This document shows positions 18,344-20,039 of a stretch of DNA of 64,000 bases, piece by piece (positions within the stretch are counted from its first letter, which is position 1; every line of letters starts with the position of its first letter). The position numbers and the translations under genes are program-made. Below the pieces are notes generated by a model that searched no databases, was not told where the DNA came from, and saw only the letters and a program-made list of their open reading frames with translations. This DNA comes from Acidobacteriota bacterium (GTDB lineage Bacteria > Acidobacteriota > Vicinamibacteria > Vicinamibacterales > CAVVIG01). The stretch covers positions 4,482 to 68,481 of the forward strand of contig JBKPDW010000049.1 in assembly GCA_046728115.1 (NCBI GenBank), read 5' to 3'.

Positions 18344-18539
18344 ACCATAACACACCAGTCCCGGTGGGAACAACGGTCATCTCTCCATCTGTCGGCGTCG
18401 CTGCAGAATCGTGAGCAGACGCGGAAGGTCCGCCTCAGCGCCGATATTCGTAACGATGACCGCCGTAGTGGCTACGAAGCCGCTTAGAACTGCTGGGCGC
18501 GACAGCGCGCTGGGGTTTTGATACAGCCTCTAAACTGAT

Positions 18540-18813
18540 ATGGAACGACTCTGTCGAGTTACCTAGATCATCTTCGTCGTCTTACTCTGGTTCTGATGGG
18601 AACGCAGCATCGGAGGTAGCCGAGTCGGCTGTCGCGACGGTTGATCACTCTGATATTCGCGGGTCGGAACCGCATAATCGTGATCCGTCGGGAGCTGCCT
18701 CGGACTAAGAGCGCGGGTCGAGCTCGAAAGCCCGCCGCATAGGTTAGTCGAGGATTCTCCATTCCGTGTGCCTCTCGGCTACCACCGTCACTGCGTGCCC
18801 AGTCGTCAGTCGG
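18540..18813 (-). ncRNA. candidate bridge RNA / seekRNA in the 3' non-coding end of the IS (prediction only)
   Basis: 274 nt lie between the transposase stop and the left inverted repeat, with no credible ORF. The region is structured. A 10-bp stem with one bulge (18698-18708 pairs with 18744-18753) encloses a hairpin (18713-18735) centred on the palindrome TCGAGCTCGA (18718-18727). There is a further stem-loop, AGCCG-ACT-CGGCT, at about 18619-18631. Confidence 0.35.
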
Positions 18814-19944
18814 TTAGGCGACCATCGGTTTCACCGACTCGGTTTGGGCTTCCACATGAACTCCGATCGCCCAGATGAATCCCAACAGCTCGCGACCGAT
18901 GGCGGTGATCGTTTGCTGTTTGCATTTCCCTTTTGCGGTCAACGTGCGATAACGCGCATGCAATCGGTGCTGTGCTTTCCACGCGATCGCGGTCACGTCG
19001 GCACTCGCGGTGGCCTGGCGTTTCCGGAGCGCGGCGCCAATGGCCGGGCGGTGCCGATAGGCCCAGGCGGCTTCGACCACGGCACGACGGAGGTGCGCGT
19101 TGCCGGTTTTCGTAATGCCTCCGCGCCGGGTTCGCGCGCCGCTCGAATCCTCGCTGGCCACGGCCCCGCTGTATCCCATCAGCTGGCGCGGTGTGGCGAA
19201 GCGCGAGAGTTCGCCGACTTCCGAAGCAATCGTTACCGCCGAGACCAACGCGACGCCGCGCAGCGCTTGGAGCGCGTCGATGACGGCCCGCATCCGTTCG
19301 GGCGCGGTCTGCACCGCGTCGTCGATGGCGCGCTCGAGTCGCGCCACGCGATCGGCCATATGCTCGACCTCGTGGAGGTAATCCAGCAAGGTGGCCTCCT
19401 GCGCCCCGTGCTCAAAGTGGAGGGTCTTCACCCACGCGACATAACGCGCCGTCCACGACGGCATCGCGGTCGATGGACGCCGGCCGTGGCGCAGCAAGAA
19501 CTTGCCCAAGCGATGACGCGCCCGCTGTTGATCCTTCTTCGCGGCTGCCCGAGCTCGCACCAGATCCCGCAAGGCTTCATGCGCCCCGTCCGGCACCCAC
19601 ACCGGCGTCAAGTCCCCCGCGCGATAACTCCGGGCCAGCTTCGTCGCGTCCCGCCGATCCGTCTTCACGCGATCGCCCGACTTGACGGGCACCAGGGTGG
19701 GCGCGATGACCTCGCATTTCACCCCAAGCGCCGTCAGCTGCCAATACACCACATACCCAGTCGGGCCTGCCTCGTAGCACACCCGCAACTCCTTGGCCGG
19801 CCCGAGCTTCTTCATCAGCTTTCGTATCGACTCCGGCCGATTGGGGATGATGCCGAGGCAGCGAACCTCTCCGCTCTGCTCCGCTACTGCGACCGCAATC
19901 GTTTCCGCATGGACATCGAGACCGACAAATCGTACCGTGGTCAT
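18814..19944 (-). CDS. IS110-family (DEDD/RuvC-like plus Tnp_20 domain) transposase/recombinase
   Basis: 376 aa starting at ATG 19944, with GAAGGAG upstream. Motifs: MTTVRFVGLDVHAETIAVAV, CYEAGPTGY, KTDRRDATKLA, and the C-terminal ...GGITKTGNAHLRRAVVEAAWAY. The upstream 114 codons of the track ORF overlap the neighbouring gene and are not credible. Confidence 0.9.
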   Translation of the reverse strand: MTTVRFVGLDVHAETIAVAVAEQSGEVRCLGIIPNRPESIRKLMKKLGPAKELRVCYEAGPTGYVVYWQLTALGVKCEVIAPTLVPVKSGDRVKTDRRDATKLARSYRAGDLTPVWVPDGAHEALRDLVRARAAAKKDQQRARHRLGKFLLRHGRRPSTAMPSWTARYVAWVKTLHFEHGAQEATLLDYLHEVEHMADRVARLERAIDDAVQTAPERMRAVIDALQALRGVALVSAVTIASEVGELSRFATPRQLMGYSGAVASEDSSGARTRRGGITKTGNAHLRRAVVEAAWAYRHRPAIGAALRKRQATASADVTAIAWKAQHRLHARYRTLTAKGKCKQQTITAIGRELLGFIWAIGVHVEAQTESVKPMVA

Positions 19945-20039
19945 GACCGGCTCCTTCGCATGTGGCTCTGCGTTGTGCAGTCCTTCAACTCGCAGCGTAA
20001 CCCACGAGCTGCGAATTGGAGTCGGTCGTTCCATTCTGA

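Follow-up and report, generated by a model that had tools for sequence, protein, structure and literature searches.

A probable IS1111-group insertion sequence with its guide RNA at the stop codon of an acidobacterial beta-propeller gene

A block of about 1.5 kb in a 64,000-nt stretch of DNA from a soil acidobacterium (Acidobacteriota; positions 4,482 to 68,481 of contig JBKPDW010000049.1, assembly GCA_046728115.1; hereafter the window) is very probably an unnamed IS1111-group insertion sequence of the IS110 family, complete and present as a single copy, that carries a recombinase gene together with a guide RNA (Table 1). Comparison with related copies established its family membership, its ends (by homology), the conservation of the RNA structure and, across the whole clade, the matching of the guides to the flanking DNA. 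For the annotation of this genome, the block at 18537-20041 is to be read as a mobile element and not as host sequence, next to a propeller gene that is left intact, and with the padR-permease operon now placed 230 bp past the outward-facing right end of the element. The known mechanism of these recombinases is left unchanged by the finding. The clade provides a clean natural data set on target coding by IS1111 guide RNAs, with 57 independent insertions, 25 guide variants and 21 empty sites, from which the rules on terminal extensions of 7 and 3 bp and on a shared core could be confirmed through sequence alone in a phylum without a named element of this kind.

Table 1. Parts of the element and of its target site (window coordinates)
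Feature	Coordinates	Strand	Remarks
Whole element	18537..20041	-	1505 bp including one core copy; ends from 7, later 69, aligned relatives and from empty sites of three sister lineages
Order of parts (gene orientation)			AG core, TCAGA, left repeat, recombinase gene, guide RNA, right repeat, ATC
Core dinucleotide, copy at left junction	20040..20041	-	AG in gene orientation, CT on + strand; also the last two bases of the propeller TAG stop
Core dinucleotide, second copy at right junction, target-owned	18535..18536	-	
Left terminal extension TCAGA	20035..20039	-	7 bp when the AG core is included, as is typical of IS1111; lineages differ in its last two bases
Left subterminal inverted repeat	20025..20034	-	three arm variants, both arms always altered together
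Right subterminal inverted repeat	18540..18549	-	perfect partner of the left arm
Right terminal extension ATC	18537..18539	-	3 bp; from alignment of relatives and sister-lineage empty sites
Recombinase gene	18814..19944	-	376 aa; DEDD RuvC-like domain and Tnp domain with Ser-Gly motif
Bridge/seekRNA	18603..18794	-	about 190 nt; 25-bp basal stem (18774-18794 with 18604-18624) enclosing a target-binding and a putative donor-binding stem-loop
Right-target guide ACUAAC, then CU (core complement)	18741..18748	-	complementarity to flank +1 to +5 above every permutation
Left-target guide and core (CUCUUAG), then UC, the first bases of the element's left end	18703..18711	-	identity with flank -1 to -3 above every permutation
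Putative right-donor guide GAUU	18676..18679	-	can pair with core and TC through one G.U pair; by analogy with the target loop
Putative left-donor guide AUAUCAG	18650..18656	-	identical to the element's right end and core
-10-like hexamer CAGAAT of the junction promoter	20033..20038	-	would form only on joining of the ends
Degenerate -35 TCGACA of the junction promoter	18552..18557	-	TTGACN in 66 of the 68 others
6-bp hairpin in the short 5' non-coding end	19991..20013	-	conserved across the clade; from alignment
Shine-Dalgarno AAGGAG	within 19949-19959	-	after the 5' hairpin

Ends, core and target site

The two arms of the inverted repeat (ATGGAACGAC at 18540-18549, matched in exact reverse complement by 20025-20034) had been recognised in a first-pass annotation of the window, together with a CTGA at 18535-18538 and another at 20036-20039, each separated from its repeat arm by one T, the 376-aa open reading frame (ORF) and the asymmetric non-coding ends, and all of these coordinates were confirmed on the sequence. 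A perfect 10-nt inverted match arose in only 93 of 20,000 shuffles of the 100-nt end windows (~0.5%), so the repeat is unlikely to be a chance match. Moreover, 69 related copies carry both repeats, in three variants that are always matched between the two arms. The repeat spans 10 bp in the window copy and 11 bp in most of its relatives, within the 7-17 bp of the subterminal repeats of IS1111 elements. Non-coding DNA takes up ~90 nt 5' of the ORF and 274 nt 3' of it, which become 97 and 277 nt when measured to the element's own termini, and this combination of subterminal repeats with a short 5' and a long 3' end agrees with the earlier impression of an intact-looking IS110-family element of IS1111 layout. 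The lower GC content then ascribed to the non-coding ends holds for the final 66 nt of the 3' end (45.5%) and for the 5' end (57.7%), but not for the RNA-coding part, whose 61.5% equals that of the flanks (61-62%).

The precise ends were deduced from the junctions of the relatives. In gene orientation, nearly all 69 copies read flank, TAG, TCANN and left repeat at the left junction, and right repeat, ATC, AG and a variable flank at the right junction, where ATCAG is constant. Uninterrupted targets could be obtained because three sister lineages aim at repeated sequences, of which their own genomes retain uninterrupted copies (3, 16 and 2 sites, n=21). In each of them the left flank ending in TAG runs straight into the right flank, all joining at a single AG, and in one of these lineages empty and occupied sites agree at every position over 49 nt of left flank. 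Only AG is thus common to target and element, whereas TCANN and ATC belong to the element, which leaves extensions beyond the repeats of 7 bp on the left (AG counted) and 3 bp on the right. Occupied and empty sites of the sister lineages therefore give the asymmetric pair AGTCANN / ATC, in keeping with the left extension of 7 (or 6) bp and the right extension of 3 bp that characterise the IS1111 group and with the 7/3-bp terminal-extension rule for elements of this family (PMC11187229). The same 21 sites reveal, for the three sister lineages, insertion without target duplication at a shared core dinucleotide. An interim core of TC or TCA (left guide ...UAGUC, flanks ...TAGTCA) was ruled out by these empty sites.

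The first-pass annotation had placed the boundaries at 18539-20035 (1497 bp), with CTGA as either a 4-bp duplication or the crossover core and an empty site reading CCTCTAAACTGACTAAGG. Such a reading draws on the presence of CTGA on both sides of the window copy, each one T from a repeat arm, and it is now very unlikely to be right. The tetranucleotide at the 5' junction is TCAC, TCAT or TCCT, not TCAG, in most of the 69 relatives, and ATCAG is what stays constant at the 3' junction; the second CTGA of the window is accidental, the left extension of this copy having by chance a G as its first variable base. None of the 21 uninterrupted targets has the tetranucleotide at its single AG join, and the guide RNA agrees with them, its right segment pairing outward from AG and its left segment ending at AG. 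The boundaries were consequently moved to those of Table 1. An empty site not joining at CTGA had been named in the first-pass annotation as a refutation, and by this measure the CTGA detail fails, through homology with the sister lineages. The earlier empty site contains a GA-CT that is absent from the corrected join, which for the window locus is predicted to bring the flanks together at one CT on the + strand (...TCTAAA-CT-AAGGAAG...).

Searches for the empty allele of this very locus gave negative results at several levels. The 18-mer first proposed as the empty site was not found in the genome of origin, and the corrected 14-mer gave only chance-level matches there and in related genomes. 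Genomes of the same genus, where the propeller gene is present at 80% identity and followed by different downstream DNA, did not yield the empty allele, and a scan of metagenome contigs for the joined flanks of the window locus returned 0 matches. Since this allele was not found in the genomes and contigs searched, the ends of the window copy rest on homology.

The insertion touches, as already noticed in the first reading, the stop codon of a neighbouring gene: CTA at 20040-20042 (TAG on the minus strand) closes a 335-aa beta-propeller ORF (20040-21047, minus strand). With the insertion point located within this codon, T and AG are both preserved and the propeller TAG survives. A general preference for stop codons was considered and rejected, as among 64 insertions the target TAG closes an open frame that extends upstream for 100 codons or more in 10, against 8 and 5 for the other two frames, without enrichment.

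Recombinase and placement in the IS110 family

The recombinase matches PF01548 over residues 7-151 and PF02371 over residues 224-299 in Pfam, and reaches 230 bits with the NCBIfam model NF033542 "IS110 family RNA-guided transposase" (cut-off 140). Residues D10, E58, D96 and D99 align with the catalytic D11, E60, D102 and D105 of IS621, and S268-G269 with its Ser-Gly motif. Across 14 aligned sequences, ISEc45, ISSso6 and IS4321 among them, no change occurs at the four acidic residues or at G269, and the sole substitution at S268 is a Thr in IS4321; the DEDD and Ser residues that the first-pass annotation had expected of an intact recombinase are all in place. The closest named relatives are ISEc45 (45.7% protein identity) and ISSso6 (45.1%), and at 45% identity to its nearest named elements the clade behaves as a separate lineage without a name. 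Classical IS1111 transposases, of 330-350 aa (PMC11187229), are smaller than the 376 aa found here, a size class shared by the recombinases of ISEc45 and ISSso6 (375-377 aa).

That the element belongs to the IS110 group proper, or to some other DEDD lineage such as the Piv-like invertases, is extremely unlikely. The sole relative in the PDB is indeed an IS110-group element, IS621 (8WT6), and identity to the classical IS1111-group element IS4321 is just 22%. The alignment with IS4321, however, runs over the full length (E = 5e-15), and that with the IS110-type ISEc21 covers only the N-terminus (E = 0.04). Moreover, the supplementary data of Durrant 2024 enter ISEc45 and ISSso6 as 'RE / IS1111' and place their RNA in the right end. 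The layout points the same way: 10-bp subterminal repeats, 7/3-bp extensions and an RNA lying downstream of the gene in the 277-nt end, opposite a left end of 97 nt, correspond to the short left end and long, RNA-holding right end by which the IS1111 group is defined (PMC11208160). Within the RNA, the right-target guide (18741-18748) stands 5' of the left-target guide (18703-18711), which is the IS1111 order, with the top-strand match 5' of the bottom-strand match (PMC11187229).

Within the IS1111 group, likeness to characterised elements is graded. ISEc45 resembles the window element in its 10-bp subterminal repeats, in the TTGACA that immediately precedes its right repeat (TCGACA in the window copy) and in its long right end, where a long basal stem surrounds ~140 nt and the target loop has at its base a ACGGAAUG...GAUCCUCG motif that recurs in the window RNA; ISEc45 and ISSso6 differ from the window element in repeat sequences, guide contents and hosts (Enterobacteriaceae plasmids). 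ISEc11, ISKpn4 and ISPa11 (PMC11187229) likewise have a non-coding region 3' of the transposase gene in which the top-strand match precedes the bottom-strand one, and subterminal repeats with 7/3-bp extensions, and they insert without target duplication, as the three sister lineages do. They form a circle with a junction promoter, whose window counterpart is predicted from the reconstructed junction sequence; their transposases fall in the smaller 330-350 aa class, and their seekRNA and transposition were shown at the bench (PMC11187229), whereas the window element is known by comparison. IS4321/IS5075 share the full-length alignment, the conserved DEDD residues and an S/T-G motif in the same place, and are set apart by their low identity, their 334 aa and their target, the terminal repeats of Tn21-family transposons. 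With IS621 (PDB 8WT6; PMC11208160) the window element shares a probable two-loop logic, the inclusion of the core in both guides and the alignment of the catalytic D, E, D, D and S positions, with the core CT being read on the opposite strand in the window; IS621 differs in keeping its RNA upstream of the gene, within the left end, in having subterminal repeats of only 2-3 bp and a reversed guide order, and in a sequence similarity that is limited to the C-terminal domain (E = 4e-6).

Guide RNA and target coding

Among the non-coding parts of the element, conservation is highest in the 3' end. A consensus obtained from 33 distinct aligned versions of the RNA comprises 56 pairs, among them a 25-bp basal stem with 19 covarying pairs, and two stem-loops with a large internal loop in each. 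In this alignment, 96.5% of the cells that should be paired are so, compared with 32-47% when partners are slid by 1-3 columns. Compensatory changes affect 26 pairs, and none of 500 shuffles matched the observed values. The window RNA itself folds at -95.9 kcal/mol (z = -5.0). No family of Rfam 15 matches this guide RNA. The ALIL pseudoknot of Rfam gave a sub-threshold hit (18 bits, threshold 50) elsewhere, inside the recombinase ORF at 19222-19330, which was taken as chance.

The target loop is complementary through its 5' side to the core and right flank, and identical through its 3' side to the left flank and core. Over 55 independent insertions, the right guide matches its flank at 4.62 of 6 positions (2.01 when permuted) and the variable part of the left guide at 3.31 of 5 (2.21 when permuted), values reached in 0 of 5000 permutations in either case. 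The match persists when a single insertion is kept for each of the 25 distinct guide pairs, and a per-position analysis of 57 insertions located the signal at +1 to +5 and -1 to -3. The window copy follows this pattern at -1 to -3 for its left guide and at +2 to +5 for its right guide; at +1, where 88% of insertions match, its right guide does not. The two bases beside the left guide match the first bases of the donor, and may represent a built-in bridge from target loop to donor.

As for the second loop, its AUAUCAG equals the right end of the element plus the core, and its GAUU can pair with the core and TC. Both partners are invariant, so that no covariation arises, and we infer that this loop pairs with the joined ends of the element itself.

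Joined ends, mobility and the acidobacterial clade

When the ends are joined in silico with one AG, 62 of 67 copies display TTGACN, a 17-nt spacer and CANNAT, the other 5 having an 18-nt spacer. Junction promoters are known in the IS1111 family (PMC11187229), and the one reconstructed for this clade fits them. In the window copy the junction reads TCGACA, 18 nt and CAGAAT; its -35 hexamer carries a T-to-C substitution at position 18556 and, among the 69 copies, is the only one to read TCGACA instead of TTGACN. A junction built on the wrong TC/TCA core had shown no promoter, and the 17-nt spacing appears only on the corrected AG junction. The coding strand of the linear element contains no promoter-like site, so that expression in place would have to come from transcripts that read through from the propeller gene. 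Metagenome contigs scanned for the circle junction gave 0 matches. A hybrid outward promoter toward padR was rejected, since the -35-like hexamer combined with the flank gives a poor -10.

Altogether, these features suggest how the element would operate, with expression, circle formation, donor-loop pairing and any present activity of the window copy being what we infer. The 376-aa DEDD/Ser recombinase would work with the ~190-nt RNA from the long 3' non-coding end. The target loop would read the DNA through a 3' segment identical to the core and the 3-4 bases on its left, and through a 5' segment complementary to the core and the 4-5 bases on its right, with the second loop matching the joined ends of the element. 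Strand exchange at the shared AG (CT on the + strand) would duplicate nothing, and in the window this AG is the end of the TAG stop of the co-oriented beta-propeller gene, which is left intact. Excision as a circle would join the -35 of the right end to the -10 of the left end, and so switch on the recombinase.

Whether the window copy can still move is a separate matter. The 8.0-Mb draft genome, in 636 contigs, contains one copy, and its other IS110-family genes are at most 29% identical; one of them, at 29% identity and with an in-frame TAG (L144, G000:C272:870-1739), is probably a decayed copy of a different element. It is conceivable, if rather unlikely, that the element is structurally complete and yet immobile in this host, a stranded single copy with a weakened junction promoter that is expressed, if at all, by read-through from the propeller gene. 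Its solitary state, the unique T-to-C in the -35 together with the 18-nt spacer, the lack of a coding-strand promoter-like site in the linear element and the deviation from the clade at 11 near-invariant positions would all suit such an outcome. On the other hand, the ORF is open with all its catalytic residues, the repeats are perfect, and two of the 11 deviations form a compensatory pair in the basal stem, pointing to selection on the RNA. Draft assemblies also collapse repeats, although the window copy lies within a contig.

Full-length copies in related genomes share 69-83% DNA identity with the window element, and a scan of one genome per species detected 80 loci with 71-86% protein identity, mostly in metagenome-assembled genomes (MAGs) of Acidobacteriota. 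Altogether the clade, found in MAGs of several soil phyla at >71% protein identity, comprises at least 25 naturally reprogrammed guide pairs. We tentatively propose, at somewhat less than even confidence, that it constitutes an uncharacterised and currently active subfamily of IS1111 bridge recombinases, with a compact target code of ~3 + 2 + 5 nt, an AG/CT core and a bridge from target loop to donor. If so, the clade could offer a new programmable recombinase scaffold.

Some minor observations concern the distribution of the relatives. A few of those at 71-86% identity (L029-L108) occur in MAGs labelled as Gammaproteobacteria (Steroidobacteraceae), Gemmatimonadales and Deltaproteobacteria, through either recent transfer between phyla in soil or binning errors. 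Two pieces 92% identical to the left end of the element stand at contig ends of one related genome (L007, G023:C207:3-131; L027, G023:C86:19759-19883), which suggests a multi-copy relative that broke the assembly.

The sister lineages differ in the kind of sequence into which they insert. A 21-nt target beginning with CTAGGAGCC is present at least 12 times in one genome (L126 and L130, G046:C1 near 184798-184966 and 531996-532164), and some of its copies form inverted pairs ~150 bp apart that resemble the terminal repeats of a small mobile element; this lineage would then echo IS4321/IS5075, which aim at the ends of Tn21-family transposons. Another lineage (L122-L124 in G041; occupied sites L075, L076, L081, L084 and L089) inserts into a repeated intergenic cassette of ~60 nt with TTGACT...TATAG followed by AGGAG, similar to a promoter with a ribosome-binding site, the insertion falling between the -10-like and the Shine-Dalgarno-like parts. 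Finally, two relatives (L036 and L045) sit within short tandem repeats, with flank units GGCGTAAG/GGCGTGAG and GTGGCTAG, and their repetitive flanks indicate that some lineages target tandem arrays.
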